Assembly: GCA_964502925.1 (NCBI GenBank)
Contig: CAZCYH010000017.1
Location: forward strand, 1,755-65,754
Source of the DNA: an uncultured Leptospira sp.
GTDB lineage: Bacteria; Spirochaetota; UBA4802; JAGODF01
DNA length: 64,000 nt
Direction of reading: 5' to 3'
Shown here piece by piece: positions 1 through 26,630 of this stretch (position 1 is its first letter; every line of letters begins with the position of its first letter). The notes under the pieces were generated by a model that did no database searches, was not told the origin of the DNA, and worked only from the letters and a program-made list of their open reading frames with translations. The position numbers and the translations under genes were made by a program.

Positions 1-431
1 ATGCTCAAAGACGCCGAGAAGCGCACCGGCTGGTCGATGGTTGATTTAATTATAGCCGTGATGCGCTCTGCAATGCGGCATCACGCAAAGTATGAAAGAG
101 AGCATGGAAGAATTGCATACCAGAAGCGCCTGGATAACGAGGGCATGCCGATACCGAAAGTACGGGTAAAGGTGAAATTCCTTGAACGGGAATATGATTA
201 TTTTAATGATATGCGGAGGTTTTTCAGAAGGTCGATTTCGCATGTGATTGCGATTGCGGTGCTTGAATATTTACCCGAGCTTGTGGAGCGCATCGAAAGC
301 GGTGCCTATGACGATGAAGTGGATTCTTATCCCTACAAAAACTGTGCAATTTATGATAAATGTATAGAAGAAGCGACGGTGTTTCACATCTGGTGGGGAT
401 TACCCAGCGATCCGGCGCTATTAGCCGCAGA
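1..431 (+). repeat. Left arm of a large inverted repeat of at least 431 bp, identical at every position checked; partner is 26158..26588 on the opposite strand.
   Basis: Reverse complement of 26158..26588 matches 1..431. Identity breaks at nt 432, 12 nt before the stop codon (gag ttc gcc cgc taa versus gaa ttc gct cat taa). Confidence 0.7.
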
Positions 432-444
432 GTTCGCCCGCTAA
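1..444 (+). CDS. Hypothetical protein, 5'-truncated by the window edge (the full gene would start about 42 nt upstream). Copy A of an inverted gene duplicate; see copy B at 26145..26630.
   Basis: ORF reads to the window start. The 147-aa translation is identical to aa 15-160 of the 26145..26630 product except for the last residue. Nucleotide identity was confirmed by eye at three places (1-60, 181-240, 400-431). No recognisable family. Confidence 0.5.
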   Translation: MLKDAEKRTGWSMVDLIIAVMRSAMRHHAKYEREHGRIAYQKRLDNEGMPIPKVRVKVKFLEREYDYFNDMRRFFRRSISHVIAIAVLEYLPELVERIESGAYDDEVDSYPYKNCAIYDKCIEEATVFHIWWGLPSDPALLAAEFAR

Positions 445-1117
445 ATCAATTCAAAATATTCCAAAATCTACAACCGTCAGCTTCCGGCGAGGGACAGCTA
501 TGCTTTGGTTTATCGAACATCCGAATTCCTGCGAATTACTGTACCATACTGTCCTCTTCTATTATATATTATCATCGGGTTGTGTACTCACATCACGTAT
601 TTCATAAAATGCTTTACCTGAGAAAAAGTACCCTCCCTCCACTATATTTCGTTAGAAATTTTTACACTTGTGTATAATATTTATACACGTATCAAAATGT
701 GACATGTATAATTTTTACCCATAATGCGACTATCATGCGGTTTTCCATTTTTTATAATAAAAACCCTAAGGTAAATTATTACAAAAATGTTAAATGTTTC
801 TTTTAAACCCACATCCTCATCTCGCGGCATTATACCATACAGACGTGTAGCATGCAAATTAATTTCACAAATTGATCTTATTACAAAAAAATAAAATTAT
901 TCAGATGAAACACATTTTATGCAATTTAATATATATAAAATATATTGCCTGTAAATTATAATTACTTTAAAAAGAATGTCATTCCTTCAGCGCATACATC
1001 ATACATATAAACATGTTTTGAAAATTTCTACAAAATCATATTATTTTATTATTCATAAATTATTTTATGTTTCGAGATCACCGGCATACATAAATTTTTT
1101 TCGTTTTGCATCAATTC

Positions 1118-1133
1118 TGGCACGCTAATTGCA
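1118..1133 (+). promoter_or_regulatory. Sigma-54 (RpoN) type -24/-12 promoter: TGGCACG-N4-TTGCA.
   Basis: Sequence ctGGcacgctaatTGCat matches the consensus TGGCACG-N4-TTGCW exactly, with GG at 1119-1120 and GC at 1131-1132. It lies about 37 nt upstream of the ATG at 1170. Confidence 0.5.
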
Positions 1134-1169
1134 TATATAATTATCATCAAGGCTGTTTCGAGGTTAATT

Positions 1170-2009
1170 ATGATGAGAAAAGAACATACGAGCAGTCAAA
1201 CCGAATTGCAAAATTATTTTTCTTCGATTAATAAAATTGCACTCCTTACCCAGGAAGAAGAAGTTACCCTTGCTAAATCCAAATGCCTGGGCGATGAAAA
1301 AGCGAAGGAAAAGCTCATAAATTCCAATTTGCGCCTTGTGGTGAAGATCGCGAAAAACTACACGTCTCTCGAACCTTCCATTATTGATTTAGTTCAGGAA
1401 GGAAATCTCGGTCTCATTCGAGCCGCAGAAAAATTCGATCCGAAGATGGGATGCAGATTCTCAACCTACGCATCGTACTGGATCAAGCACTACATCACCC
1501 GCTTCATCGCAAAGCGCAGCAGAGCGATACGGGTTCCTATACGCAAAGGCGACCTTCACAAAAAAATTAATAAAGCACGAGAACTTCTTTTAAGCGAAAG
1601 CGGCCGCGAGCCTACTTCGATTGAACTGGCGGAGCTTTTAGGTGTTCATGAAAAAGAGGTGCGCGACATTCAGGAAGTATTCCAGCCGACGGTATCCCTT
1701 GAACATCCGCTCAACGATACCGACTTCAGCCTTCTTGAAGTGGTGGAAGACGTAACGTCCCTTTCTCCCGACTATCACGTAACCCGCAACGAGTTGAAGG
1801 AGGAGCTTGAAAGCGCAATGAATTCACTTCTTGAAAACGAAAAGAAAATTCTCAGAATGCGCTTCGGCTTCGATGACGACAGACCCGTCACCCTCAAGGA
1901 ATTGGGCGATGAGTTCGGCGTTTCGGCCGAGACAGTCCGCCAGATAGAATCGCGCGCGATGAATAAAATTAAGAAGAAATTTTCCCATTTACAGGATTTT
2001 TTATACTGA
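1170..2009 (+). CDS. RNA polymerase sigma factor, sigma-70 family (RpoS/RpoD-like, with regions 2, 3 and 4), 279 aa.
   Basis: Region 2 motifs are present (NLRLVVKIAKNY, YASYWIKHYITR). Region 4.2 reads LKELGDEFGVSAETVRQIESRAMNKIKK. A GAGGT ribosome-binding site precedes the ATG. Confidence 0.85.
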   Translation: MMRKEHTSSQTELQNYFSSINKIALLTQEEEVTLAKSKCLGDEKAKEKLINSNLRLVVKIAKNYTSLEPSIIDLVQEGNLGLIRAAEKFDPKMGCRFSTYASYWIKHYITRFIAKRSRAIRVPIRKGDLHKKINKARELLLSESGREPTSIELAELLGVHEKEVRDIQEVFQPTVSLEHPLNDTDFSLLEVVEDVTSLSPDYHVTRNELKEELESAMNSLLENEKKILRMRFGFDDDRPVTLKELGDEFGVSAETVRQIESRAMNKIKKKFSHLQDFLY

Positions 2010-2026
2010 CGCCCTTTCATATACAC

Positions 2027-2060
2027 TACCCTTGCTATGAGAGGTTCCCCACCTCTCATT
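2027..2060 (+). terminator. Rho-independent terminator after the sigma factor gene.
   Basis: Hairpin atgagaggt-tcccc-acctctcat followed by a T9 run. Confidence 0.55.
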
Positions 2061-2124
2061 TTTTTTTGTTTTTTTCTTGAGAAATTTCGCATATTGCCTT
2101 TTATTTCAGCGACGGGAGCGTGCC

Positions 2125-3156
2125 ATGTCAAAAAATCACATAATTTCAATCATATCATCATTAAAGAAGGATCTTGCCAACATTCCCGAACTTCTTTCTG
2201 AAATGAAGCATGAGATGAAAATGATGACGGCATGCATGCCGTGCGATTTTCTTCCTTTTGAAATACTTCGAGCATGCGGCATCCATCCTTTTATTATGCC
2301 ACCCGGATTTGACCATCACCCTGAGTTTCACACCATACTCGATGCGATAATCACACCTAAAAGCTGCTGCTTTGCGCTTTCAAACAGAAATAACATAATT
2401 CCAGCAATAATCATAGATGCAATTCCCGCCACGTATGGCGACAACTCGCTTCATGAATGGAAAACGCTGCTCGGGAATATTCTTTCGACACTAAAAGGAA
2501 AGGATTTTGAGATACCTGTAGCGGAACTACGTTCTTCGGCCGGGAAGTATGCCACGCTTCGCCGCCTGGTGCGCGGCATTACGCTTTTGCGCCGCGAAAA
2601 ACCGGATGCCCTTTCCAATGCTGATCTTGAAGTGATTTTTTCGTCGGCTCTTGCGTTTCCTCCGGGAATGATCGCTCCGAAACTTTCATCGCTTCTGGAT
2701 GCGCTGAACGATTATTCTTCGCGTTTTGAAGGCACGCCAATTCCCGCGCTCATCTACGGACGCTGCCGCAACAGGGGTGTGTCACCGGACGATCTGGAGA
2801 AAGAGGGTTTTCTTATTGTCGAGGACGATATATGCGGCGGCAGAAGGAGCTTCGATCTTTCCTACAACACGGGGGCGGATTATCTCTACGATGAAATCAT
2901 CAACGCGTTTTCTTTCAGGCCATTCTGCCCCTGCCTGCGAAGCGCCACAAGCCGGTTTGAGCTTCTCTATATGCTGGCGGGCTCTTACGGTATTGAAACT
3001 GTCATATTCATCGACGACAACTCCTGTCCAACGCGCGCATCGCATATTGACTTCATGCGCAGGCGCCTCATGCGCTTCGGCATCGATCACCTGGTACTTC
3101 ATCCGGAAAATCCGATTGATGAAGCGCGAAGATATGTGGATCTTGCCTCACGTTGA
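2125..3156 (+). CDS. 2-hydroxyacyl-CoA dehydratase / benzoyl-CoA reductase subunit family protein (HGD-D-like). Start chosen at MSKNHII.
   Basis: N-terminal ACMPCDFLPFEILRACGIHP and C-terminal GIETVIFIDDNSCPTRAS-HIDF resemble the HGD-D family signature (x-G-x-x-C-x-x-P-E-I-x-x-A-x-G and a CD/CP motif). GGGAG sits 7 nt upstream of ATG 2125. No activator ATPase lies nearby. Confidence 0.4.
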   Translation: MSKNHIISIISSLKKDLANIPELLSEMKHEMKMMTACMPCDFLPFEILRACGIHPFIMPPGFDHHPEFHTILDAIITPKSCCFALSNRNNIIPAIIIDAIPATYGDNSLHEWKTLLGNILSTLKGKDFEIPVAELRSSAGKYATLRRLVRGITLLRREKPDALSNADLEVIFSSALAFPPGMIAPKLSSLLDALNDYSSRFEGTPIPALIYGRCRNRGVSPDDLEKEGFLIVEDDICGGRRSFDLSYNTGADYLYDEIINAFSFRPFCPCLRSATSRFELLYMLAGSYGIETVIFIDDNSCPTRASHIDFMRRRLMRFGIDHLVLHPENPIDEARRYVDLASR

Positions 3157-4572
3157 TGCGAGATACCTGTCGATGTGCTTAGCGGCTTCGCGCCCCTGAT
3201 GAATGGCCCACACCACCAGCGAAGCGCCGCGAACCGCATCTCCAGCGGCGAAGACACCCGCGACATCGGTCATCATGTTTTCATCCGTGGCAATGTTGCC
3301 TGCAGGATTAAGCGACACACCGAAATCTTTAATCAAGCCGCCCTGTTTGATATGCAGAAATCCGAGTGCCAGCACTACCATTTCAGCTTTGAGTTCAAAA
3401 TCGCTTCCCGGTACAGACACCGGAACCATCGCTCCGCTTGCATTCTTTTCCCAGTTGACCTTTGCGCACTCAATCGTACATACTTTTCCGTTTGATTCCC
3501 TGAAGCGTTTCGTCTGAACGTTCCACAGCCGCTCGCACCCCTCTTCATGGGAACTTGATGTTTTGAGAACCTTCGGCCACAGGGGCCAGGGTTCGCTTTC
3601 GGATCGCTTCGCAGGCGGCATGGGGAGGATCTCTATCTGGGTGACGCGAAGCGCTCCCTGCCGGTTTGCCGAACCCACGCAGTCCGATCCGGTATCGCCG
3701 CCTCCGATCACCACTACATTTTTATTATAGGCGTTGATGATGCAGCTTTCGGGTATCTTTTCCCCGCGCACGATTCTGTTTTGCTGTTCAAGATACACCA
3801 GCGCCTGATATATTCCCTCGAGTTCTCGCCCTTCCACGGACAGATCGCGTGCTTCCCGCGCACCGATTGTCAGGCATATCGCGTCGAAATTCCTTCGAAG
3901 CTCAGAAACGGAAATATCCTTCCCCACTTCAACGCTTGTTCTTATTTCCAGCCCCTCTTCCACAAGCAAATCCACCCGACGGTCAATCACGCCCTTGTCC
4001 AGTTTGAAATCGGGAATGCCGAACCTGAGATATCCGCCCACCGAATCCGCGCTTTCAAAGAGCACCACACTGTGCCCTTTTTTATTCAGCAGATCGGCGC
4101 AGGCAAGCCCCGCAGGACCGCTTCCGATGACCGCAACCTTTTCCCCAGTCCTTTTTTGGGGTGCGCGCGATTTCACGTATCCTTCCGCAAATGCTTTTTC
4201 TGCCACCGCCAGCTCGTTTTGCCTTATGGTCACCGGCGCATCATTGATCGACAGCACGCAGGAAGCCTCGCAGGGAGCGGGACAAACGCGTCCGGTGAAT
4301 TCCGGAAAATTATTTGTTGATGAAAGAATATCGTACGCTTCCTTCCATCTGCCGCGGTAAATCATATCCTGCCATTCCGGCATGATATTGCTCACGGGAC
4401 AGCCCCAATGGCAGAATGGCACCCCGCAGTCCATGCAGCGCGAGGCTTGAAGGCGGCGCTCATCATCCGAAAGAAGTTTCTCCACTTCGGAATAATCGCT
4501 TATACGCTCCTCAACCAGGCGATATCCGGATTCCATGCGTTGAATGTTCAAAAAGCCTTTTGGATCTCCCAT
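3148..4572 (-). CDS. gltD: Glutamate synthase (NADPH) small subunit, beta chain.
   Basis: 474 aa. It has the Cys-rich Fe-S N-terminus (CMDCGVPFCHWGCP) and two dinucleotide-binding GxGxxG motifs (VIGSGPAGL, VIGGGDTGSDC). Its start overlaps the gltB stop by 1 nt (TGATG). Confidence 0.9.
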   Translation of the reverse strand: MGDPKGFLNIQRMESGYRLVEERISDYSEVEKLLSDDERRLQASRCMDCGVPFCHWGCPVSNIMPEWQDMIYRGRWKEAYDILSSTNNFPEFTGRVCPAPCEASCVLSINDAPVTIRQNELAVAEKAFAEGYVKSRAPQKRTGEKVAVIGSGPAGLACADLLNKKGHSVVLFESADSVGGYLRFGIPDFKLDKGVIDRRVDLLVEEGLEIRTSVEVGKDISVSELRRNFDAICLTIGAREARDLSVEGRELEGIYQALVYLEQQNRIVRGEKIPESCIINAYNKNVVVIGGGDTGSDCVGSANRQGALRVTQIEILPMPPAKRSESEPWPLWPKVLKTSSSHEEGCERLWNVQTKRFRESNGKVCTIECAKVNWEKNASGAMVPVSVPGSDFELKAEMVVLALGFLHIKQGGLIKDFGVSLNPAGNIATDENMMTDVAGVFAAGDAVRGASLVVWAIHQGREAAKHIDRYLAST

Positions 4573-7500
4573 CAGTCGTGCACCTCCAGTTGTTCTTCTT
4601 CACGGATTCTTTTGAGCTTAAGCTCAATCTGCTCGATCATCTGTTCCTGCAGCGCGCGCTTGTATTCAAACGGAATGACTTTGACAAACTTCGGCACATA
4701 CGCATGCCATTCCCTGAGTATCCTTTCTGCGATGGCGCTTCCGGTGTATCTGTAGTGCTTGCGCAAAAGCTCGATGATGAAATCCTGATCTTCAAAATCG
4801 CGGACAGGAGATAAATCAACCATGCCTTTATTGCAGAAATAGTCGAAATTTCCGTCAACGTCGAGCACATACGCGATGCCGCCGCTCATCCCTGCGGCGA
4901 AGTTCCTGCCAACTCTCCCCAGAACCAAAATTCTACCACCGGTCATGTATTCCGCGCAGTGATCGCCCGTGCCTTCAACCACCGCGATGGCGTTGCTGTT
5001 GCGCACGCAGAAGCGCTCACCCGCGATGCCGCGGATATATGTCTCGCCGCTGGTTGCGCCGTAAAGCACTGTGTTACCAACAATGATGTTTTCATCGGCG
5101 GAGAACTCGACGTCCTTTGGCGGAAGCGCGATAAGCTTTCCGCCTGAAAGGCCTTTCCCGAAGTAGTCGTTCGCGTCTCCTTCCAATCTAAAGGTGATGC
5201 CTCTTGTTAAAAACGCTCCGAAGCTTTGCCCGGCGCTTCCCCTGAAAACGCATTCGATGGTATCATCGGCGAGACCGGCATCGCCGTATTTTTTCGAAAT
5301 ATAATAGGAAAGCATCGCTCCAGTGGCGCGGTCGGTGTTTTTGATGGGCATCTCCACGTACAATTTCGCGCCGGTTTCACCTTTGATCACCGGCATCGCC
5401 TTTTCAACAAGCGTTCGGTCAATCACGCGGTCGATTTTATGCACTTGCTTTTCCACACAGTATCGCGCCGAATCAGCGACGCTACCATTTCTATATAAGA
5501 GTGATGAAAGATTTAAAAATCGCGCTTTCCAGTGGCTCACCTCCCGCATTTTGAGAAGTTCTGTTCGCCCAATGAGATCGTCAAACTTTCGTATTCCCAG
5601 CGACGCCATTAATTCACGAACCTCCATCGCAATGAAGGTAAAGTAGTTCACTACGTGTTCGGGCTTCCCGCGAAAACGCTTCCGCAGTTCCGGATCCTGC
5701 GTCGCCACACCAACCGGGCAGGTATTCATGTGACACTTGCGCATCATCACGCACCCCAGCGTAATGAGCGTCGCGGTGCCAAAGCCAAACTCCTCCGCCC
5801 CCAGAATCGCCGCGATCACCACATCCCTTCCGGTTTTGAGCTGGCCATCGGTTTGAAGGCGAACCCGTCCGCGAAGTTTGTTCGCGACCAGCGTCTGATG
5901 CGTTTCTGATAGACCAATTTCCCAGGGGATCCCTGCATGTTTGATAGAACTCAATGGGCTTGCACCCGTACCGCCATCATAGCCGCTGATGAGAATATTG
6001 TCCGCATGCGCTTTTGCCACACCCGCCGCAACCGTGCCCACGCCCGTTTCGGAAACGAGCTTCACGCTGATGCGGGCATTGGGGTTTGCATTTTTTAAGT
6101 CAAAAATGAGTTCCGCCAGGTCTTCAATCGAATATATATCGTGGTGCGGCGGCGGCGATATGAGCGTGACGCCGGGAGTCGAATGACGGGTTTTAGCGAT
6201 TATCTTATTGACCTTATGGCCAGGCAACTGCCCCCCTTCTCCTGGTTTCGCTCCCTGTGCCATTTTTATCTGCAATTCATCGGCATGCGCCAGATATGTA
6301 CTTGTAACGCCGAATCTCCCCGACGCAACCTGCTTGATGGCACTTCGGAAAAACGTGCCGTCGCTTTTCGGCACATACCGTTCCGGGTCTTCCCCCCCTT
6401 CGCCTGAGTTGCTACGCCCTCCGATTGTATTCATGGCAATTGCAATGGTTTCATGGGCCTCTTTACTGATGGAACCAAACGACATCGCGCCTGTGGTGAG
6501 GCGTTTCATAATAGCTTCAACCGGTTCCACTTCATCGATCGGTGCCGACTCCCGAGCAGCGAAGTCGAAAAGCCCGCGGATCACATGCGGCCTGGAGTTA
6601 TCAGCGTTTACGGCTGCACTGAATTCCTTGAATTTTTGATAATCCCCCTTGCGCACCGCCCATTGCAGAAGATGTATGGTTACGGGATTCCATGCATGTT
6701 TTTCGCCGTATTTTCTGTACGCATAGACACCTTCGGATGGAATTATCCGGATGTCATCATCGAACGCGGTGCGGTGCGACATGAGGGCTTCCCAGGCAAT
6801 CTCACGTATTCCGATTCCGCCTATGCGAGAAGGTGTGCCGGTGAAATATTTTTCAATTACCTCATTGCCAAGGCCTAACGCCTCAAAAACCTGCGCACCA
6901 CGGTAGCTGCGGAGAGTGGAAATTCCCATCTTGGAAAGCACTTTCAACAAAGCTTTCTCATTCGCCTTGATGAAATTCTCCACTGCTTTATCATAGCTCA
7001 TCTCTTTCGGGAAATACTGCCGGCTATGAAGGTTGCGGATGGTAGCGATTGCTCCATAGGGGTTAACGGCATCGGCCCCGTATCCAAAGAGAAGCGCCAT
7101 GTGCATCACTTCGCGCGCCTCAGCAGTTTCAATCACAAGCGCGGCTCTGGTACGCTTCTTTACGCGAATCAGATGATGATGTACACCGGCGCAGGCCAGA
7201 AGCGAGGGGATGGGCGCATTCGTCGCATCTGCTTTTTTATCAGATAGAATAATTATGGTATGCCCCGCATCAATGACCTTCTCCGCTTCGGCGCAAATCT
7301 CGTCCATGGCATCGGAAAGGCAATGAGCATCATTTGAAGCAGGGAACACGATAGGAATGATAACCGCTTTGAAATCCGGATTCTGATAGTGCCGCAGCTT
7401 TTCCACATCGCTATTGCGGAAAATCGGGCGCAGAAACTTTATCATCCTGCAATGCTCCGGCGTTTCATCCAGGAGGTTTAGTTGTCTTCCCATAAAACTC

Positions 7501-9173
7501 GTCAGTGTCATCACCAGATCCTCACGGACCGAGTCGATAGGAGGATTGGTCACCTGGGCAAACGCCTGTTTGAAATAATTGAAAAGGCGCTGGGGTTTAT
7601 CGGACAGCACAGCAAGCGGGGTATCGGTGCCCATTGAACTTGTGGGTTCCTGTGCGGTTTCGGCGGTTGTTTTAATAATCAGTTCAATATCTTCCCTTGT
7701 GTAACCGTGCATGAGTTGCAACCGCAACAGGGCATCCTGCAACATCTCCTCGCTCCCTTCGCCAGCGTAGGGGATATTCTCGAACAGCACCCTGTTTTCC
7801 TCAACCCACTGTGCGTACTGTTTCTGCCGGGACATCTCCTGCTTGATTTCTTTATCGGGAATTATTCTGCCTTGCTTCGTGTCCACCAGGAGCAGTTTGC
7901 CGGGCATAAGACGCCCTTTCGCGCGCACTTCATCGGCACGAAAGTCCTGCACGCCGACTTCCGAACCCATGACGATGATATCGTTTTTGGTGATGACATA
8001 TCGGGAAGGGCGAAGCCCGTTTCGGTCGAGCGTTCCGCCCACGAATCGCCCGTCGCAGAAGACAATGCTCGCAGGGCCATCCCAGGGCTCCATAAACGCG
8101 GCATGATATTCATAAAAATATTTCAATTCCTGCGGAATTGGATTCTTATCGTTCCATGATTCGGGAATGAGCATCATAAGGGTATGCGGGAGCGTGCGTC
8201 CCGCCATCATCAGAAATTCAATAGCATTATCGAGCGAAGCGGAATCGCTTTTCTCTGGCTCAATGACGGGAAGGGCATACTTTATTGACTCGCCAAACAA
8301 ATCCGATATAAAATCCGATTCCCGCGCCGACATCCAGAAGCGGTTTCCCTTGATGGTATTTATCTCTCCGTTGTGCGAAATGATACGGAAAGGCTGTGCC
8401 AGCGCCCATGCCGGAAACGTGTTGGTGCTGAAACGGGAGTGCACCATCGCGATGGCGCTGGTGAGCCGTTCATCCTGAAGTTCACGGTAATACTTCCTGA
8501 GCTGGTGCGGCATAAACATGCCTTTATACACAATCGTCTTTGAAGAAAGGGTTACGATGTAAAAATTTTCCTTGCCCGCAATTTCAGAGGTGCGGACATT
8601 TTGTTCGGCGATTTTCCTGGCAAGAAAGAGTTTCCTTTCAAGCGCTTCATTCGATGCGCCATCCGCATCAGCAATAAATACTTGAAGAATCCTCGGTTCT
8701 GATTGTTTTGCTATCTCTCCCAGGACAGAGCTATCGACATCAATATCCCTCCAAGCGAGGATGCGAAGGCGCATGTTCACAAGTACCGATTCAAATATCT
8801 GCTGGAGCGAACCTTGCGCGATGGTGTTTTTCGGGAAAAAAACCAGCCCTGTTCCATAGCTGCCTTCATCCGGAAGGTTCTCGATTTGTTCTGAGTAGAA
8901 CTGATGCGGGATCTGCAGCATAATTCCCGCCCCATCACCAGTTCGGTTATCGGAGCTCTCAGCACCCCGATGTTCCATTCGTTCGAGTACTTCGAGCCCC
9001 CGGCGGACGATATCATGGGATTTTTTCCCTTTGATATGCGCCACAAAACCGATTCCGCAGGAATCGTGCTCATGCTCGTACGAATACAGTCCCTTTATGC
9101 GTTGCTCTGCCGACATTTCGCAATTATCCTCCGTAGCGTCTTTTACTACCTCTGCAGCAAGCATACTATACAT
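4572..9173 (-). CDS. gltB: Glutamate synthase large subunit, alpha chain.
   Basis: 1533 aa with four recognisable domains. These are the N-terminal Ntn amidotransferase (HEHDSCGIGFVAH), the central domain, the FMN-binding domain and the C-terminal GXGXG domain. Forms an operon with gltD. Confidence 0.95.
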   Translation of the reverse strand: MYSMLAAEVVKDATEDNCEMSAEQRIKGLYSYEHEHDSCGIGFVAHIKGKKSHDIVRRGLEVLERMEHRGAESSDNRTGDGAGIMLQIPHQFYSEQIENLPDEGSYGTGLVFFPKNTIAQGSLQQIFESVLVNMRLRILAWRDIDVDSSVLGEIAKQSEPRILQVFIADADGASNEALERKLFLARKIAEQNVRTSEIAGKENFYIVTLSSKTIVYKGMFMPHQLRKYYRELQDERLTSAIAMVHSRFSTNTFPAWALAQPFRIISHNGEINTIKGNRFWMSARESDFISDLFGESIKYALPVIEPEKSDSASLDNAIEFLMMAGRTLPHTLMMLIPESWNDKNPIPQELKYFYEYHAAFMEPWDGPASIVFCDGRFVGGTLDRNGLRPSRYVITKNDIIVMGSEVGVQDFRADEVRAKGRLMPGKLLLVDTKQGRIIPDKEIKQEMSRQKQYAQWVEENRVLFENIPYAGEGSEEMLQDALLRLQLMHGYTREDIELIIKTTAETAQEPTSSMGTDTPLAVLSDKPQRLFNYFKQAFAQVTNPPIDSVREDLVMTLTSFMGRQLNLLDETPEHCRMIKFLRPIFRNSDVEKLRHYQNPDFKAVIIPIVFPASNDAHCLSDAMDEICAEAEKVIDAGHTIIILSDKKADATNAPIPSLLACAGVHHHLIRVKKRTRAALVIETAEAREVMHMALLFGYGADAVNPYGAIATIRNLHSRQYFPKEMSYDKAVENFIKANEKALLKVLSKMGISTLRSYRGAQVFEALGLGNEVIEKYFTGTPSRIGGIGIREIAWEALMSHRTAFDDDIRIIPSEGVYAYRKYGEKHAWNPVTIHLLQWAVRKGDYQKFKEFSAAVNADNSRPHVIRGLFDFAARESAPIDEVEPVEAIMKRLTTGAMSFGSISKEAHETIAIAMNTIGGRSNSGEGGEDPERYVPKSDGTFFRSAIKQVASGRFGVTSTYLAHADELQIKMAQGAKPGEGGQLPGHKVNKIIAKTRHSTPGVTLISPPPHHDIYSIEDLAELIFDLKNANPNARISVKLVSETGVGTVAAGVAKAHADNILISGYDGGTGASPLSSIKHAGIPWEIGLSETHQTLVANKLRGRVRLQTDGQLKTGRDVVIAAILGAEEFGFGTATLITLGCVMMRKCHMNTCPVGVATQDPELRKRFRGKPEHVVNYFTFIAMEVRELMASLGIRKFDDLIGRTELLKMREVSHWKARFLNLSSLLYRNGSVADSARYCVEKQVHKIDRVIDRTLVEKAMPVIKGETGAKLYVEMPIKNTDRATGAMLSYYISKKYGDAGLADDTIECVFRGSAGQSFGAFLTRGITFRLEGDANDYFGKGLSGGKLIALPPKDVEFSADENIIVGNTVLYGATSGETYIRGIAGERFCVRNSNAIAVVEGTGDHCAEYMTGGRILVLGRVGRNFAAGMSGGIAYVLDVDGNFDYFCNKGMVDLSPVRDFEDQDFIIELLRKHYRYTGSAIAERILREWHAYVPKFVKVIPFEYKRALQEQMIEQIELKLKRIREEEQLEVHD

Positions 9174-9316
9174 TATATCACAACGTCATACAAGCAAATA
9201 TTCTATGCCGTATTCAATCAATGAAAAGGGATGCCTTTCTGTTACATTTATGTAAATTTAGACGAATATGAGATTTGCAACAGGAGCTATCGAAAAATCC
9301 TTCTGATGTTCACAAT

Positions 9317-18313: not shown

Positions 18314-19285
18314 CTATTTTTCTCCTGCAAAGCGATAAGTGTACAGTTTCATCTTCTCCGGACTATTGATTACCTTGAATTCACAGGCAATGATGTCATC
18401 AAGGGTGGTGTATACCACCTCGCTGATCGTCAGAGAATTCGGGTTCGTATAGAGCGACTCGTACTGAATGGTTTTCCTCACCGGATCTAATTTTTTCAAT
18501 TCCTCCTCGCTGTCGCTGTAGTCGCAATTGCCGCAGTGGATAGCCAATCGCACCCGGAGCGGTTCACCCAGCCTGCAATGAAGGCGGTTGTACAGAAAAA
18601 GCTCGTGAAGAATTTCCATTCCAGAGGTGACTGCCATCTGGTTTTTATGCGAAAAATAAAACGCGATGAGCCCTCCGTCTCCTTCCCAGCTCCAGATGCG
18701 CCCGTTGCGGGAATAAATCGCGGCTTTCACGATTTCGCCGAAATCGCTGTAGGTATAATTGACCATTTCTGCACTGTATTTCCGCACGAGTTTCGAATTT
18801 CCCACAATATCGAAACGCAGGAATGTGAGGACGTATTCATAGCCCTCGCGGAGCACGCCCCAGTTGCGGGTCCTCCGCACTGACTGGTCCTCGACAAACA
18901 GCTTATTGTGCGAATCATACACGAAGCCGTGCTCACGCATTTCCTTCACGATATCGTGCAAATAGGCAATGTCGTATTGTTTTCCCATCCATCCGCGGTT
19001 TGATATTTCCACTAAAATATTCACAAATTGAGGGAAGAGTGCGGAATCGTTGATGTCGTAGATTATCTGACGCGCGGCGTCAAGGTTGGGAATTGAAATA
19101 CTGTGAGGAAATCCTGTTCTCTGGTTCAAATCATAGTTCGGAAGCAACCTTTTAACCAAATGTTCCATGGTATGGACATTCATCGACTGCGCGAGAGATC
19201 GAATTGCGATGTTTAGAAGGCTCGGTTTAACTTTCATACCATCTCCTACCCGTGCATTGCGATGATGCAAACGGGCAAATACCAT
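18314..19285 (-). CDS. Class III nucleotidyl cyclase (CHD)-like domain protein, paralog B. It retains both putative metal-binding Asp residues.
   Basis: Clear paralog of 17354..18313 (FLRFDIVGNS...GRIWSWEGDGG...RLAIHCGNCDY). The stop of B abuts the start of A. Confidence 0.4.
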   Translation of the reverse strand: MVFARLHHRNARVGDGMKVKPSLLNIAIRSLAQSMNVHTMEHLVKRLLPNYDLNQRTGFPHSISIPNLDAARQIIYDINDSALFPQFVNILVEISNRGWMGKQYDIAYLHDIVKEMREHGFVYDSHNKLFVEDQSVRRTRNWGVLREGYEYVLTFLRFDIVGNSKLVRKYSAEMVNYTYSDFGEIVKAAIYSRNGRIWSWEGDGGLIAFYFSHKNQMAVTSGMEILHELFLYNRLHCRLGEPLRVRLAIHCGNCDYSDSEEELKKLDPVRKTIQYESLYTNPNSLTISEVVYTTLDDIIACEFKVINSPEKMKLYTYRFAGEK

Positions 19286-19363
19286 GTCAAGGATTAATCA
19301 TATTATACCACTATGAAAGTATTTTTGTTGATACACACACATGAATACTCGTACAATGGCCGT

Positions 19364-20248
19364 ATGAAATCCGTACTGTACCTCTTTGCATGTTTGATAA
19401 TTATTCCTGCGCTACTGGCGCAACCAACCTTCGCATCAGAGTTCATGCTGGCCGATCCGAATATCGCTTTAACATGCATCGAGTATTCCGGCACGCCCGC
19501 GGCGAAAATTGGCGATCTCTTCCGCTGGGGAAATATCAGCATCGGGGGATTCCTGCAATCTCGAAACGAGGAGCGCTTCCACCAGGGCGCGCTGCCGAAT
19601 CACAACTGGCGGGGATTTGCGTTTTTGAATTATACCTATTCTCTTCCGGCATGGGGATCTTTTTCTCCTGCGCTGATTATGGGCGTTGAACATGAAAGCG
19701 CGCACCCAAGCGGCGGTTTTTACGAAAATAACGATGAAGCCTATGAGATGATATATGATGGCCTCTACCGCAACATCAATATGAATTCAATTCGCCTATC
19801 GCCGATGTTGAGCCTCTTCAACGGCATAGCACACCTGCGGTTGGACTATCAGCTCTATCTGTTCTCGAAAAATACTCCCGAGTTGCACGATACCGCGCTT
19901 GCTCACGGGAACGGCCTTTCAGGGGGATTCGACGGCATATTCCCGCTCTCGCAGGACTACGCATTTTTCATCTCGGCGTTTTTCCGATATATTTTTACAA
20001 GCAGTGCGCGCAGAAGCGACTGGATTTACCATAATCATAACGGCACCGTGGTGCAAATATATGAGGAGTATCCCGTAATAAATTCCGTACACACTATTTC
20101 TCTTAAAGCAGGCATAATAGTCCCGCACATCGCGCAGAGAAGAACGCTTTCTCTGTTTGCGCGCCTTTTGCACGGCAATCCATACGGGTTTATCGACAGT
20201 CGGGAAAACCGCTTCGTGATTGCGGTGGGGGTGGAGTTGATGCACTAA
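19364..20248 (+). CDS. Secreted hypothetical protein with a signal peptide, possibly an outer-membrane beta-barrel. Start chosen at MKSVLYLF.
   Basis: Signal peptide MKSVLYLFACLIIIPALLAQPTFA. Rich in aromatic and Gly residues. The HES-containing segment GVEHESAHPSGG weakly resembles the OMPLA active-site region; this is not conclusive. Confidence 0.45.
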   Translation: MKSVLYLFACLIIIPALLAQPTFASEFMLADPNIALTCIEYSGTPAAKIGDLFRWGNISIGGFLQSRNEERFHQGALPNHNWRGFAFLNYTYSLPAWGSFSPALIMGVEHESAHPSGGFYENNDEAYEMIYDGLYRNINMNSIRLSPMLSLFNGIAHLRLDYQLYLFSKNTPELHDTALAHGNGLSGGFDGIFPLSQDYAFFISAFFRYIFTSSARRSDWIYHNHNGTVVQIYEEYPVINSVHTISLKAGIIVPHIAQRRTLSLFARLLHGNPYGFIDSRENRFVIAVGVELMH

Positions 20249-20277
20249 AAAACCGCCCCTTCCGAGGCGGCTTTTAC
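20247..20277 (+). terminator. Rho-independent terminator between convergent genes.
   Basis: aaaaaaccgcccc-ttcc-gaggcggctttt. Confidence 0.6.
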
Positions 20278-20302
20278 CGTAAGAGTGGTTAATCTGTGTG
20301 TA

Positions 20303-21190
20303 TCAATACCCTTTGTTCTTGAGATCCTTTACCATATCAACATACCAGGCTTCGACATCAGCCCCGGGGGTGATACCAAAGAAGTGGTTCACCGCATTGA
20401 TATGTGACACGCCGCCGGCATTATACCACGAACCGGTCCAGGTGCCGCGGAAGGTTCCCCATTTCGCCGAATTCACCGACACAAGGCCATCGTTAGCACC
20501 TTCATAGAAGTTCAAAAGCAACCATGTGCCTTCGAGCACCATATCGGCAGTGATTGTGTAGATGCGCGTTGCCCAACTCTGATAGTACACGCCACTCATA
20601 TTGGGAGTATTGGGGTTGAAAACATTAATCATATAGCTGCGGACAAGATTATGGCCGTTTTGTGCACTCTGCGGATCTGAATCGCCAAGAAACTTATATA
20701 CGATATCAAGGATGCCGCCAACCAGCCACTCGCCAGAATCGGGGAGAATGCCCATAATCACATCGGCAATCGCGCTTCCTCGATGCGGGCTGCACAGGGT
20801 GGTGAGGCTTGCAACCTTTGACGCAAGGCCTAAATTGGAAATGGCATAGCGCGTATAGATCCCGCCGTGGGAATGGCCGATGATATTGCCGCGCGACGCG
20901 CCGGTTACCGCGAGAAATTCAAGGAACTGCCGTTTGAATTGCGCTGCCTTGTTGGCGGTAGTATCCATCGCATTGACCGATGCCACATACACCGTTGCGC
21001 CATTATCTTCGAGGTCATCGACGATGTCCCACCAGTAATCGATGCCAAGCATCCCGTCGGAAAATGCCATACCATGCGCAAGCACGATTGGGTAGCGCGT
21101 CTGACATGCCGTGTTTGAGCCGCCGGCGAACGCAAGAACTGGAATAAACGCAAACATTGCAATGAGTGAAATGATACTTATTTTTTTCAT
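20303..21190 (-). CDS. Secreted triacylglycerol lipase, alpha/beta hydrolase.
   Basis: Signal peptide, then an HG oxyanion motif (VLAHGM) and a GHSHGG nucleophile elbow typical of bacterial family I lipases. Confidence 0.8.
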   Translation of the reverse strand: MKKISIISLIAMFAFIPVLAFAGGSNTACQTRYPIVLAHGMAFSDGMLGIDYWWDIVDDLEDNGATVYVASVNAMDTTANKAAQFKRQFLEFLAVTGASRGNIIGHSHGGIYTRYAISNLGLASKVASLTTLCSPHRGSAIADVIMGILPDSGEWLVGGILDIVYKFLGDSDPQSAQNGHNLVRSYMINVFNPNTPNMSGVYYQSWATRIYTITADMVLEGTWLLLNFYEGANDGLVSVNSAKWGTFRGTWTGSWYNAGGVSHINAVNHFFGITPGADVEAWYVDMVKDLKNKGY

Positions 21191-21343
21191 AAAAAATCCC
21201 CCCGCGTATATGACCTTTATACCAAACCGTCCATTCGGTATGGTAAGAATATACTGATACAGGGCATTCGATTCTTATCAAAATCCGCAAAAACTAAAAA
21301 TGAGGGGGTTTTTCAAAAAAAAAGTGATAAAATAGGGAAATAT

Positions 21344-21361
21344 GTGAACATACGTTCACAG
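21344..21361. promoter_or_regulatory. Perfect 18-bp palindrome TGTGAAC-ATAC-GTTCACA in the lipase upstream region, just 3' of the large regulator gene.
   Basis: Seen directly in the sequence. It could be an operator or part of a terminator hairpin. Confidence 0.3.
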
Positions 21362-21389
21362 TAAGTCTATATAATGTAGTAATACTCGA

Positions 21390-24300
21390 TCATTTTCCCC
21401 CTTTGGTTTTTCGGTATTCTTGTGGCGAAATCCCCATTATTTTTACGAACGCACGATTGAAGGTAGAGAGGCTTTCAAACCCAACCGCATAGGCAATATC
21501 AATTATCTTTTCTTTGCTTTCAGCCAGCTTCTTTGCGGCATCTTCCACCCGCAGCCTGTTGATATAATCACCAATTTTTTCACCGGTAATCGATTTAAAT
21601 GCCTTGCCGAGATGATCGGGATTGATATTCAATGAAGCGGCAAGCCCCTCGCGAGAGACATCAGAAGTATAATTTTTCTTGATGTATTCAATCGCTTTAT
21701 GCACCTTCTGTTCGGTTGCGATCGAAAAAAGTTCCTTGGGGAATTGTTCCTTCAATTCAACCGGCTGAACACTGCCGAGTGCTTTTGCTACAATCACAAG
21801 GAATGAACCAATAGCACGTATGTCTTTTTTGTCGGCATTATCATCTTCGAAGGTGGTTTCAACCAGACACATGCCTAAGGTTTTCCTTTCTCTCAAAAGC
21901 GGAAATGCTGTGTAATGTGACAATGAGATTGGATCGGCTTCATCACGATGAGCAGGTTTTTCTTCTCTCTTAATTTCATGATACAATTCCTCGAGTCGTG
22001 CGCGTTCGATTCCTTTCGACGACAGGATATCAAAGCTTTTCTCTCCTTCGTATATCACAAAAACACAGCCCGCACGCGCACCTACAAAATCCATCACAGC
22101 CACAAGCGCGGTTTCAGCAATATCTCTCGCTTCTTTCTTTTCAAGAATTTGGCGCCCGATTTGCGCAAGCAAGGCATGCCGCTCCTTACTGAAATATCGC
22201 TCCAAGGGCGTTTTCTCATCCTTAACAGAAATGCCCAGAAGCCGTGAGAGCCGGGACACATATTGTTCCGAACCGATTTCCACACTCAACCGATACGCTT
22301 CCTCGAATACAGCATGCGCGGTCGAAGCTTCCCCCTTTTTGAGATGATAGTTCCCTATTTCCACCATCGTCCGAAGCTGTTCAAACGGCCGGTTGTGTCT
22401 GCACGCGTGCTCTTTCGCCTTTTGAAAAAGCTCATACGCGATGCGATGTTTTCCCTCACGTTCCACTGCGCACGCATGTACGCGTAGCGCAGCCCCATGA
22501 TGCGTCGGCCACGCGCGAGTTTTCGCAACTGCAACTTCGCACGCGCGAAGCATTTTTTTCATCAGAGATGCCCTATCACGCTTTGAAACTTGTCCCCCTC
22601 TGGCGTCATACTCATCGATATACGCCTGCCCAAGATTCACATAGACTGGAACGATGTACTGCTTTAAAAACGAGTGCTTTTCATGCGGCCCTCTGGCTTC
22701 TTCAAGATATTCAATCGCGCGTTCGAAATTCCCCGCTTCGAGTTCATTGCATCCAAGTTCATTGAGCGCGGAACAGAAATTGAACCAAATACCCCGGCTT
22801 TTGCTCAAATCGGCTGCGCGCTTCACGAATTCCACTGCTCTGTTCGCATTTCCCCTCTCCCTGTGATATTGCGAATAATAGATGAGCGCCGCGCCTTCGG
22901 AATATTCATCACCAAGACGGCTGACGAGTTCATAATACTCATCATTTATTTGAATAGCTCGCGCATATTCTCCCCGATAGTAATGGCAATGTTCAAGTCC
23001 ATTCAGCGTCATTGCATATTCTTTGATATCGCCAAGCTCGTGAAATATCCTTTTCGCTTCTTCGAAATACTCAATCGCTGTTTCGTATTCAGCCCGCCAC
23101 TCGTAATAGTACCCCATAAACTCGAGCGACTTTGCAAGTCCCCAGCGATTGCCCAAGTTCTCGTTCATTTGCCGCGCTTTCCGAAGATACTTCAAAGCAA
23201 TGTCAAAAAGGGGAATGGAAATATAGAGTGCACCAACTCCATAATAGCTCAACGCCAGTTCGGAAGAAGCGCCGATGTACCGCTCGGAAATATTGAGCGC
23301 GTGAATATTCGACCACACGAGCTTTAATGGGTCGTTGAGAGCATAGCTCATCCCCAGCGGCTCATAAAATTCGATAATCTGGCGATAATGATCCGCATCA
23401 CTTCCTTGTTTTTTACGGACAAAGAAAAAAGGAAAAGCAAGATGAAGAAGATGTTTCATCGCTTCTTTTGCGAGGGCAAAAAATACCTGATTTTTCGTGC
23501 GCGGCACATAATCACCCAAAAGCGCAAGACCTTCCGCCGCATGCGTTTCGCAGCTTTTCCAGTCGGCTTTGCGATAGTGGGCCTGACACAATACGAGATG
23601 CGCACGAGCTCGTCGATCAATTTGTTTAATCACTGGCATGAGAGAATCCAGGATAGATATTGCTTCATCGTATTCGCCAATAATCACATCAACCGCAGCA
23701 AGCTCAAGCTTGCATTCGATCATCTGCTCATCATCCTTCCTTCCAAGCTCTCCAAGCATGGCAATCGTTTTATGAAAATAGCGGGCTGCATCGCGGTAGG
23801 CATAACGATCTTTCGCAAGCACCGCCGCGGGATACAGATACCGAACCGCACTGTTAAACTCACCTCCTTCTGAGTAATGATGCGCCATATCGAATATTGC
23901 TTTTTCTTTTTCAATCTCCTCCGCCTCGAGGGCATGAGCAATTTTCAGATGAAGCGCCTTTTTGTTCGTCGGATCTATGCGTTCAAGAAATATTTCCATG
24001 ATACGATCGTGCGAGAACTGAATCACATCGCTTTCCGGGACATCCTCTTTGAAAATGCGCAATTTCCGTGCAGCTTCAATTGCCGAAACACAAGCATTCT
24101 CTGGTATATTGAGCACTCTGGCTATGAAACGATAATCGATTGCTTTTCCGATAACTGCTGCGCACGCAATCACAGCTTCTTCGGTTTCATCGAGCAGCCT
24201 GGCGCTGTGAGCAAGTAAATCCAGGAGCGAATCGGGAATACTCTGTGCGTCTATGTGCTGTGTGTATTTCCATATTTTTCCATCAAACACAGCCATGCCG

Positions 24301-25985
24301 CCTTCGATGATATTTTTTAACACTGTTTTGGCGTACAGCGGATTTCCCTCACTTTTCTGATAGATAATATCCGCAATAGCCGCCACTGCATCCTCACTTT
24401 CTTCCATCATTTCCGCGACAAGCCCTCTGACTGCCAATGCATCAAGCGCATTCAGCCGTATGGAGATGCTCGCCGCATATGGCGCATTTGCCGGCGTAAG
24501 CTTTGCGTGTGATTCATCGCCCTCACGCGATGTCAGAAGAACCATCACGCGCGCTCGCTCGGTGATACTAATAAGTTCCGAGATCACACTGACACTCGCG
24601 GCGTCGATCCACTGCACATCGTCGATGAAAATAACAGCCGCAGAACCGAGGAGTTCAATTGAGCGCAAAAATCGCGCCAGGAGTATCCCGGCATTACGCG
24701 CGCTTTCTTCCATTTCTTCGTTTTTTAAAATAGCTGTATCCTCGAATACCTGCACAATGCCGGGTTGAATTTTCGCGATTAACTTCCGACAGGATGTCAT
24801 TTCTTTGGCAAAAAGCTCCCGGATTTTTGCCTTTGTATGTTCATCGGATGTCGCGTACAATTTTAACAATGAAGCGAAAAGGCCGTTCAATGCTTCGTAG
24901 GGAGTATTTGCTGATTCGCGATGGCATTTCGCTTCGAGAAAAACTCCGCCACGTTTTTCGACTTCAGTTTTAAACTCTTCGATGAGGCGGCTTTTTCCGC
25001 ACCCCGCTCGTCCTTTCACCTCAACAGATATTCCGCTTCCTTGCCGAACATCAGCAAATATTTTAATAAGGCGTTCCATTTCCGCTTTCCGCCCTACCAG
25101 CGATGCACGATAATTAAGCTGACGAACGCCGTCTTTCTGCCCAATGGCGAAACATCTCTTCCCCTCCAGAAACTGATCGAGATCGTACACCAGCGCCTCG
25201 GCGCGCCCATATCGATGTGAGGGCTCTTTTTTCAACAATCGCAAAACAATTGCTTCAAGCACTTCGGGAATGTCGGGATATATTTCCCGAACTGGTACGA
25301 CTTTTTCTGAAAAGCCCGTTGCGCCAAAATCGCTTTCTGAAAAAGGAAATTTTCCCGTCAGAAGCACGTACAGAAGAACTCCCAGAGAATATAAATCGCT
25401 CCTCTCATCAACTGGCCTCCTGATAAGTCCTCGCTGCTCTGGAGGCAGGAAGTCCAGCAATTCATGAAGCTGTTCAGCGGCATAATCATCAGGGTAATCG
25501 AGGATATGTGCGAAACCAAATCCCCACAGGAGTACTCTCTCGGCATCTATGAACACAAATTGTGGAGAAATCGCGCGGTGAATAACCCCTTTGAGGTGAG
25601 CATGAGCAAGTGCTTCGGCACTACATTTCACGATAGATACTTTCTTTTCAAGGGAGATGCTGAAAAACCCGTCTTTTGTAATATATTCCGCCAGTGATTT
25701 TCCCGCAAACGCCTCGGTGATGACATACGCCCGATCGAAAAAATCACCCGCCTCGATGATGCGAATGACTGAAGTATGATGAACTTCTTTCATTTTTGCA
25801 GCAATGCTTTTAAAGCGAATCACATCGCCGGGGCGGCGCGACATCACCGGTGCAGCAATCACAAATGCGTTCACATCGTTCCCGGCAATGATATCATGCC
25901 CAAAGTACCGAGTGAAGATAGGGTTTTCTGAAATTATTTCTTTCAGCAGATATTTTCCGTTAATAGTTTTTCCCAAGAATTCCAT
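21390..25985 (-). CDS. Large multidomain regulator: N-terminal Ser/Thr-kinase-like pseudokinase, AAA/STAND ATPase, TPR repeats, GAF-like domain and a C-terminal AraC-type HTH.
   Basis: Kinase fold with HRD changed to HRA (VIHRAISPQ) and DFG changed to GFG. Walker A reads GRAGCGKS. TPR-like repeats are long and helical. The C-terminus is AraC-like (IAYAVGFESLSTFNRAFVKIMGISPQEYRK). Confidence 0.8.
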   Translation of the reverse strand: MEFLGKTINGKYLLKEIISENPIFTRYFGHDIIAGNDVNAFVIAAPVMSRRPGDVIRFKSIAAKMKEVHHTSVIRIIEAGDFFDRAYVITEAFAGKSLAEYITKDGFFSISLEKKVSIVKCSAEALAHAHLKGVIHRAISPQFVFIDAERVLLWGFGFAHILDYPDDYAAEQLHELLDFLPPEQRGLIRRPVDERSDLYSLGVLLYVLLTGKFPFSESDFGATGFSEKVVPVREIYPDIPEVLEAIVLRLLKKEPSHRYGRAEALVYDLDQFLEGKRCFAIGQKDGVRQLNYRASLVGRKAEMERLIKIFADVRQGSGISVEVKGRAGCGKSRLIEEFKTEVEKRGGVFLEAKCHRESANTPYEALNGLFASLLKLYATSDEHTKAKIRELFAKEMTSCRKLIAKIQPGIVQVFEDTAILKNEEMEESARNAGILLARFLRSIELLGSAAVIFIDDVQWIDAASVSVISELISITERARVMVLLTSREGDESHAKLTPANAPYAASISIRLNALDALAVRGLVAEMMEESEDAVAAIADIIYQKSEGNPLYAKTVLKNIIEGGMAVFDGKIWKYTQHIDAQSIPDSLLDLLAHSARLLDETEEAVIACAAVIGKAIDYRFIARVLNIPENACVSAIEAARKLRIFKEDVPESDVIQFSHDRIMEIFLERIDPTNKKALHLKIAHALEAEEIEKEKAIFDMAHHYSEGGEFNSAVRYLYPAAVLAKDRYAYRDAARYFHKTIAMLGELGRKDDEQMIECKLELAAVDVIIGEYDEAISILDSLMPVIKQIDRRARAHLVLCQAHYRKADWKSCETHAAEGLALLGDYVPRTKNQVFFALAKEAMKHLLHLAFPFFFVRKKQGSDADHYRQIIEFYEPLGMSYALNDPLKLVWSNIHALNISERYIGASSELALSYYGVGALYISIPLFDIALKYLRKARQMNENLGNRWGLAKSLEFMGYYYEWRAEYETAIEYFEEAKRIFHELGDIKEYAMTLNGLEHCHYYRGEYARAIQINDEYYELVSRLGDEYSEGAALIYYSQYHRERGNANRAVEFVKRAADLSKSRGIWFNFCSALNELGCNELEAGNFERAIEYLEEARGPHEKHSFLKQYIVPVYVNLGQAYIDEYDARGGQVSKRDRASLMKKMLRACEVAVAKTRAWPTHHGAALRVHACAVEREGKHRIAYELFQKAKEHACRHNRPFEQLRTMVEIGNYHLKKGEASTAHAVFEEAYRLSVEIGSEQYVSRLSRLLGISVKDEKTPLERYFSKERHALLAQIGRQILEKKEARDIAETALVAVMDFVGARAGCVFVIYEGEKSFDILSSKGIERARLEELYHEIKREEKPAHRDEADPISLSHYTAFPLLRERKTLGMCLVETTFEDDNADKKDIRAIGSFLVIVAKALGSVQPVELKEQFPKELFSIATEQKVHKAIEYIKKNYTSDVSREGLAASLNINPDHLGKAFKSITGEKIGDYINRLRVEDAAKKLAESKEKIIDIAYAVGFESLSTFNRAFVKIMGISPQEYRKTKGGK

Positions 25986-26144
25986 ATCTTCTTCATCACA
26001 CAGATATTTATAATCACCGTTTATTGTAGCATATCGTAATTAAAATCACATTTTCGCAAAAAATCAAGAGATAAATATTGACGGGGCAAAGTTATCCTTT
26101 GCGGGGAGGTGCCGCTTGAAGAAATAGAGGATTTTTTATTGGTT

Positions 26145-26630
26145 TTAATGAGCGAATTCTGCGGCTAATAGCGCCGGATCGCTGGGCAATCCCCACCAGA
26201 TGTGAAACACCGTCGCTTCTTCTATACATTTATCATAAATTGCACAGTTTTTGTAGGGATAAGAATCCACTTCATCGTCATAGGCACCGCTTTCGATGCG
26301 CTCCACAAGCTCGGGTAAATATTCAAGCACCGCAATCGCAATCACATGCGAAATCGACCTTCTGAAAAACCTCCGCATATCATTAAAATAATCATATTCC
26401 CGTTCAAGGAATTTCACCTTTACCCGTACTTTCGGTATCGGCATGCCCTCGTTATCCAGGCGCTTCTGGTATGCAATTCTTCCATGCTCTCTTTCATACT
26501 TTGCGTGATGCCGCATTGCAGAGCGCATCACGGCTATAATTAAATCAACCATCGACCAGCCGGTGCGCTTCTCGGCGTCTTTGAGCATCATCATAATTTT
26601 CTTTGTCATCATATAGGTTGTTTTTATCAT
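26145..26630 (-). CDS. Hypothetical protein, 161 aa, full-length copy B of the inverted gene duplicate. Start chosen at MIKTTY.
   Basis: Good ribosome-binding site (GGAGGT-N6-ATG at 26630). The product is identical to copy A except for the terminal residue. Confidence 0.55.
   Translation of the reverse strand: MIKTTYMMTKKIMMMLKDAEKRTGWSMVDLIIAVMRSAMRHHAKYEREHGRIAYQKRLDNEGMPIPKVRVKVKFLEREYDYFNDMRRFFRRSISHVIAIAVLEYLPELVERIESGAYDDEVDSYPYKNCAIYDKCIEEATVFHIWWGLPSDPALLAAEFAH
26158..26588 (-). repeat. Right arm of the large inverted repeat; partner is 1..431.
   Basis: See the left-arm entry. Confidence 0.7.

Follow-up and report, generated by a model that had tools for sequence, protein, structure and literature searches.

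Inverted duplicate genes are described for Salmonella, where tufA and tufB reportedly undergo concerted evolution by RecA-dependent gene conversion. On the protein side, tandem ribbon-helix-helix (RHH) folds are represented by TraY of the F plasmid (PDB 9f0x_E; single-chain tandem RHH), by AvtR, a tandem-RHH regulator of an archaeal lipothrixvirus (PDB 4hv0), and by the engineered single-chain Arc (1u9p). Here we analyze a stretch of 64,000 nucleotides from an uncultured Leptospira sp. (contig CAZCYH010000017.1 of the assembly GCA_964502925.1), referred to as the window at its full length, in which two neighbouring, inverted genes for a small protein with a predicted tandem-RHH fold share an almost identical tract and bracket 25.7 kb of DNA. 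We infer that this near-identity goes back to an ectopic gene conversion in the recent past, in which about 435 nt were transferred between two inverted neighbours from an expanded tandem-RHH family, and we put the probability of this reading at roughly 70%. The features of the locus are the following.

1..444, plus strand: left copy of the tandem-RHH family gene, of which the last 147 codons and the stop lie in the window (family profile E = 3.9e-42)
26145..26630, minus strand: right copy of the tandem-RHH family gene, 161 aa plus stop (family profile E = 2.2e-48; AlphaFold2 (AF2) model with a predicted local distance difference test score (pLDDT) of 93)
ATG at 26711, minus strand: alternative start of the right copy, which gives a 188-aa open reading frame (ORF) equal to the protein record P0028
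1..431, plus strand: left arm of the near-identical tract, a probable gene-conversion tract (430/431, mismatch at 402)
26158..26588, minus strand: right arm of the near-identical tract
445..503, plus strand: left 3' flank, conserved in the family, with an A-rich part, a short CCG...CGG hairpin, a Shine-Dalgarno-like GAGGGA and an ATG at 500-502
26086..26144, minus strand: right 3' flank, conserved in the family, with a GCGG...CCGC hairpin, AAAGGA and TTG
26676..26716, minus strand: upstream block of the right copy, putative promoter and operator, with a T-run, TTGCAA (26707-26702), a 16-nt spacer and TAGTGT (26685-26680)
26638..26642, minus strand: Shine-Dalgarno sequence GGAGG, 7 nt upstream of the ATG at 26630 and kept in nearly all copies
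445..26144, no strand: bracketed segment of conserved ordinary chromosome, collinear with CAKZSV010000006.1, GC and skew uniform

Direct comparison of window positions 1-431 with the reverse complement of 26158-26588 gave 430 matches over 431 positions, with a longest exact stretch of 401 nt. The first-pass annotation of this DNA had called the arms equal at every nucleotide it checked, which holds for these 430 positions but overlooked the sole mismatch at position 402. A repeat search of the 64-kb window returned a single long pair (1-503 and 26086-26588, inverted, 94% complementarity) and no other long repeats. Each arm forms the 3' part of an ORF that points inward, 1-444 (+) on the left and 26145-26630 (-) on the right, an orientation that had been read correctly, as had the edge 12 nt before the stop codon with its four differences in the last 13 nt: the arms differ at positions 432, 438, 440 and 441, and the TAA stop at 442-444 is common to both. 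Past position 431 the similarity decays gradually and amounts to approximately 60-70% up to position 503, because about 60 nt of the 3' flank are conserved across the family.

For the opposite end of the tract, a comparison of protein records gave a hint. In the protein collection P0028 is identical to the 188-aa ORF of the right copy, and the last 147 residues of P0001 (180 aa) equal the translated window positions 1-441 down to the terminal R, which is H in the right copy. Both records are placed on NCBI contigs of 70,448 nt, presumably one and the same contig. P0001 is most likely the full-length left copy, whose 5' part would fall outside the window. Its N-terminal start reads MTKEILMMLKD compared to MTKKIMMMLKD in the right copy, which means that the two copies differ at the second and the fourth codon to the left of window position 1 (KEIL/KKIM). 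As the two proteins differ at the codons just left of position 1, the left arm, whose further extent had been listed for checking, probably reaches only 3-5 nt beyond the window, and the identical tract would comprise about 435 nt in total with sharp ends on both sides.

To place the pair in a wider context we compared the window with a related metagenome-assembled genome (MAG), CAKZSV01. Its contig CAKZSV010000006.1 carries two copies at 7506-7985 (+, L007) and at about 33092-33571 (-, L004), which are likewise inverted, inward-pointing and separated by approximately 25 kb. The genes between the copies are shared with 86-90% nucleotide identity, and collinearity, in the same orientation, extends over the interior and on into the DNA past the right copy. 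It follows from this collinear arrangement that the inverted pair is ancestral and that the two genomes share one orientation of the segment. The copies L007 and L004 are 88.5% identical at the nucleotide level, which is typical of paralogs, and for the 3' flanks of the window copies the orthologue is L007 on the left and L004 on the right. Therefore, the near-identity is specific to the lineage of the window and confined to the gene interior. The sharp edges had been interpreted as a recombination or gene-conversion boundary rather than as a sign of an old duplication, and the abrupt change at both ends together with an orthologous pair of only 88.5% identity supports this view.

The arms are part of a large family. 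When species-representative genomes were scanned with the 161-aa protein, 39 loci were identified, all of them in the MAG CAKZSV01 and with 81-92% protein identity to the query; tblastn and the hidden Markov model of the family added divergent members (about 40% identity) in the same MAG loci, and a cluster look-up pointed to further distinct members on other NCBI contigs, which differ in length from those of the MAG and are probably from the window's own assembly. The dispersed paralogs therefore number at least 39-45, the two arms included, and lie in unrelated contexts, with at least 40 copies in single genomes. At least 10 contigs of the MAG start or end inside a family gene (L022, L026-L035, L038); the family is a major reason why assemblies break in this lineage, and its true copy number is probably higher. 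Using 25 full-length MAG copies and the two window copies, the pairwise nucleotide identity over the coding sequence (CDS) has a median of 85.4% and a maximum of 92.6% if the window pair is left out. From the median identity about 63 differences are expected over 431 nt, whereas one was observed. Mean pS among the family copies is 0.46 and mean pN 0.066 (pN/pS 0.14), and third codon positions are about 3-6 times as diverse as first and second positions. The copies are therefore old, intact paralogs under purifying selection. A local deviation was observed at codons 121-140 (approximately window 319-378 in the left copy), where third-position diversity is 0.10-0.13 compared to 0.30 gene-wide, which suggests a nucleotide-level constraint within the CDS or more frequent homogenisation.

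Additional evidence for gene conversion comes from a Sawyer-type permutation run test. For the window pair, a run of 190 of the 213 polymorphic sites gave a global p of 0.002. In the MAG the same test was significant for L006/L006b (global p = 0.004) and L011/L023 (p = 0.01), and 11 pairs compared to 3 expected reached p <= 0.01. In detail, L006 and L006b (L006:10001-10483 (+) and 17572-18054 (-)) are inverted, 7.6 kb apart and 91.4% identical overall, with identical runs of about 120 and 65 nt, and represent an independent example of conversion between neighbouring copies. The window pair itself combines a long identity run, diverged flanks and a diverged orthologous pair, as expected for a converted tract. 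Compared to the orthologues the tract is a mosaic: of the informative sites, 26 are L007-like (left), 17 L004-like (right) and 7 match neither, and repeated exchanges within the family are likely.

These results can be brought together in a simple scenario. The two arms would be neighbouring members of a large, old and dispersed family, and ectopic homologous recombination of the RecA type would have copied about 435 nt of one copy onto the other, recently and in the lineage of the window. Such a non-reciprocal conversion between inverted repeats 25.7 kb apart would have erased approximately 50-60 differences and left one sharp edge about 40 nt into the gene from its 5' end and the other 12 nt short of the stop codon, and the DNA between the copies would be normal chromosome in its long-term orientation.

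The annotation from the letters had assigned the duplicated protein to no family that it recognised, which agrees with the lack of any match in Pfam (E <= 1) and NCBIfam. Its suggestion of a DUF1564-like family was not borne out, as no such Pfam match was found for the window protein (E <= 1) or for 95 members (E <= 0.01). A literature search on DUF1564 returned nothing. A profile search over 1.84 billion cluster representatives (clusters at 50% identity, E <= 1e-3) yielded 251 relatives, nearly all of about 145-165 aa and aligned over the full length, which share the motifs TT.N, V.YQ.R, W...H..L...EYE.F.D.RK..K.SVS...A.AV..YL, DNY...NY and W.IYWG.P. Among the distant relatives, the one that is named is an annotated RHH-domain protein from a 'Spirochaetes bacterium' MAG. 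A 95-member profile searched against the PDB matched CopG (E = 0.002) and more weakly MazE7 (0.037), VapB26, MazE6 and NikR, in each case over residues 1-43. Moreover, 5 of the 95 members match Pfam RHH_1 and a few others RHH_3, RHH_4, RHH_5 or DUF6364; the weak NCBIfam matches of a few members are dominated by RHH-type proteins such as RelB-family antitoxins, and the PHROG matches are Arc/CopG-like repressors. This similarity to RHH proteins is detectable at the profile level only, and the window protein alone matches nothing.

The AF2 model calculated from the 95-member alignment (pLDDT 93; a model from a shallow alignment of close paralogs reached 50 and was discarded) predicts a beta-alpha-alpha fold, in which the N-terminal strand pairs with a second strand as in the RHH superfamily. 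According to this model one polypeptide contains two RHH units, followed at the C-terminus by an additional conserved beta-hairpin and helix of about 45 residues. The protein is thus predicted to be a pseudo-dimeric, putatively DNA-binding tandem RHH to which a C-terminal module particular to the family is added. There is no curated model for this family, which consists of uncharacterised single-chain tandem-RHH proteins within the RHH superfamily. Two more specific assignments were considered and rejected. For an accessory protein of the relaxosome of the TraY/VirC2 type the tandem RHH is present, but an oriT, a relaxase, transfer genes and a plasmid match are all missing; for an RHH antitoxin of a type II toxin-antitoxin system no adjacent toxin gene was found, and the downstream genes are convergent in about half of the cases and show no recurring family. 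Both memberships are excluded because of the gene context. In agreement with that, the neighbours of 27 copies are heterogeneous (FTHFS, PEPCK, PFL, ThiF, SDR, TPR proteins, hydrolases and others, in both orientations) and reveal no recurrent partner gene or neighbourhood theme. Distant members are stand-alone genes as well. One with about 21% identity (L042:10001-10498; GCA_020721925.1, DYLV01000014.1) lies alone and antisense between gspG and gspF of a type II secretion system, where it looks like an insertion into an operon, and L043 and L044 show the same arrangement.

To delimit the repeated unit, the copies were aligned together with 300-nt flanks. Conservation sets in about 90 nt before the ATG and tapers off about 60-90 nt past the stop codon. 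The self-contained unit comprises approximately 640 bp, with a promoter-like block that includes a palindrome, a Shine-Dalgarno sequence, the 161-aa ORF and a conserved 3' flank of about 60-75 nt. The consensus of the upstream block is TTTTT-CTTGaaAaAATACTATACATATGTAttGtTG, and pairwise identity in the block is about 80% compared to about 33% in the surrounding DNA. We read it as a putative promoter, TTGAAA-N16-TAKTGT, in which the perfect palindrome ATACATATGTAT would span the spacer and the putative -10 element. The block occurs once in the window, at the right copy (approximately 26676-26716 (-)), with 0 occurrences expected by chance, and is followed by about 45 variable nucleotides and the GGAGG Shine-Dalgarno sequence in front of the ATG. 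The position of the palindrome suggests a putative operator and autoregulation by the family protein, which may regulate transcription by binding to the palindrome of its own promoter.

The 3' flank of the family consists of an A-rich stretch, a CCGG-N7-CCGG hairpin and AAGGGA-N6-ATG, with the ATG at a fixed distance of +58 after the stop codon. A few compensatory variants of the hairpin (e.g., GCGG/CCGC, CCAG/CTGG and CATA/TATG) are present among L001-L028 and the window flanks. Nevertheless, a structured RNA was rejected, as the two-part hairpin pairs in 65% of cells compared to 64% in shuffles and covariation was not significant. Rfam gave no match in the window or in four loci, and no intrinsic terminator was called at the 3' flank. 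The ATG at +58 was also rejected as the conserved start of a small ORF, since the resulting peptides are unrelated and range from 4 to >200 aa.

Outside the repeat, two further features of the window are worth listing.

39630-48354, plus strand: complete recC-recB-recD operon (NCBIfam equivalogs, E down to 1e-275)
17354-19285, minus strand: two adjacent ORFs of 319 and 323 aa without a Pfam or NCBIfam match

The recBCD genes represent recombination machinery and are otherwise ordinary. The 319- and 323-aa ORFs are distant paralogs (24% identity over 150 aa, E = 2e-14), and a discontinuity of about 930 nt in the alignment with the MAG, at window 17737-18669, falls within this pair. Furthermore, a Logan contig of the run SRR12976788 (L040) is 100% identical to window 1185-5455 (4,271 nt), which indicates that this run holds the same strain.

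Several points weigh against the reading as a recent gene conversion. A donor copy and a direction of the conversion were sought, and the mosaic relative to both orthologues gives no answer. The 5' edge of the tract is deduced from the protein record P0001 and not from DNA, and the start of the window happens to coincide with this edge within 3-5 nt. A contig ending at window position 1 would point to an assembly break at the repeat boundary, although the P0001 record argues that the contig continues. Regarding the regulatory part, a simple consensus sigma-70 scan did not call the proposed promoter, and DNA binding, operator and autoregulation are inferred only. Finally, the contigs of the MAG that end within a family gene (at least 10) indicate that assemblers struggle with the family, and a mis-threaded assembly is possible.

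The last point leads to the alternative that survives best. If the two loci were in truth about 88% identical, an assembler could have threaded one of them through the interior of the other at k-mers shared in the family. We consider this artefact unlikely. It would be in line with a draft contig from a lineage in which the family evidently tangles assembly graphs, and the edges of the tract fall in family-conserved segments that offer shared k-mers. However, both copies are located within one long contig with unique flanks, the single internal mismatch at position 402 has been retained, and the other members that probably derive from the same assembly are all distinct. Moreover, the independently assembled MAG also contains significant shared tracts between neighbouring copies, and an exact repeat of 401 nt exceeds typical k-mer sizes, so that a contig break would be a more common outcome than silent mis-threading.

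It is quite unlikely that the approximately 640-bp unit is a new kind of minimal selfish or mobile cassette that spread to at least 40 chromosomal sites of a spirochaete-like lineage without a recognisable transposase, maybe with the help of a nuclease or relaxase acting in trans together with the TraY-like protein. If this were true, gene conversion would be part of the maintenance of the family.

The first-pass annotation had favoured an invertible chromosomal segment or a composite element, and this claim is not supported. For a functional or frequently invertible segment the arms would recombine to flip the 25.7 kb, and the exchange would keep them identical. The presence of recBCD in the window would be compatible with that, conversion and crossover have common intermediates, and an inverted identity of about 430 nt clearly exceeds the minimum that RecA-dependent exchange requires; in principle, it could support a rare RecA-mediated inversion. 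Nevertheless, we regard frequent inversion as very unlikely. The comparison of synteny with a related genome, proposed as a check, revealed the same inverted pair with the same orientation and genes and no sign of inversion, neither in the interior nor at the right junction. In that genome the same pair is 88.5% identical, which means that identity is not maintained, and the arms are just ordinary copies out of a family of 40. All 4-kb windows show a negative GC skew, with values of about -0.05 to -0.14 inside the segment and -0.01 to -0.14 outside. Because this polarity matches the surroundings, it argues against comparable time spent in both orientations or a recent flip, and it is consistent with the one fixed orientation found in both genomes compared. 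No transposase or integrase genes and no site-specific recombinase were found in or beside the segment. GC content lies between 0.45 and 0.52 throughout the window and, like the skew, is alike inside and outside the segment, which leaves no compositional island. The segment codes for a sigma-70 family factor, an HGD-D protein, GltD and GltB, a cytidylate-kinase-like protein, a PAS-GAF-SpoIIE phosphatase, a 7TMR-DISM hybrid kinase, a nitroreductase, hypothetical proteins, a hydrolase and an STK-AAA-TPR-AraC regulator. It appears to be ordinary, stable and conserved chromosome and not a mobile or flipping element. A composite transposon or genomic island was rejected as well: the arm protein is an RHH protein without a transposase domain, the segment is syntenic and of uniform composition, and target-site duplications are absent.

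Highly improbable, finally, is a unit that is or was mobile and of which two copies would move the DNA between them in the manner of a composite transposon: self-contained units dispersed over unrelated intergenic sites in both orientations, their conserved 5' and 3' flanks, a predicted fold that resembles the relaxosome accessory proteins TraY and VirC2 and the distant member antisense between gspG and gspF would speak for it, but neither the protein nor the neighbours of the 27 copies carry a transposase, integrase or relaxase signature, no target-site duplications above shuffles surround the copies, the lack of near-identical copies besides the window pair and a pS of about 0.46 indicate no recent spread, both copies occupy orthologous sites in two species-level genomes, and tblastn found no family relatives in plasmid and phage collections.

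With gene conversion as the favoured reading, a possible invertible or composite element of 25.7 kb would resolve to an ordinary ectopic gene conversion between paralogs. The case is also a warning for draft genomes, in which identical inverted repeats that are short and sharp-edged can simply be multigene-family members that were converted or mis-assembled. Beyond that, the expansion of one small, putatively autoregulated DNA-binding protein to at least 40 copies, each with a conserved putative operator, is unusual; a regulatory network specific to the lineage, a nucleoid-associated function or a decayed selfish element could lie behind it. Therefore, the family merits a curated model.

Compared to the systems mentioned at the beginning, the predicted protein fits none of the described groups completely. 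The N-terminal 43 residues match the profile of CopG and, weakly, those of MazE and VapB, and a palindrome in the promoter region of the own gene is a feature of autoregulated RHH repressors. However, the CopG/Arc/MetJ repressors and the RHH antitoxins (MazE, VapB, ParD and RelB) are single dimerising RHH units, the antitoxins with an adjacent toxin, whereas in the family described here the RHH is duplicated and a partner gene is lacking. F-plasmid TraY shares only about 8-10% sequence identity with the family, which has no match to the Pfam TraY model, is chromosomal and multicopy, carries the extra C-terminal beta-hairpin and helix of about 45 residues and is devoid of an oriT, relaxase or tra context. 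AvtR and single-chain Arc show no sequence relationship to the window family, which occurs in a bacterial host, has another C-terminal extension and can be assigned a regulatory role by inference only. At the level of the DNA, the similarity to tufA/tufB is closer. In both cases two inverted paralogs contain a near-identical patch with sharp borders, with diverged flanks and a diverged orthologous pair elsewhere, and the same substrates can rarely yield inversions. In contrast to tufA/tufB, the locus is known from sequence alone and the two genes belong to a family of at least 40 members, most of them about 15% apart, in which homogenisation is sporadic and not sustained.

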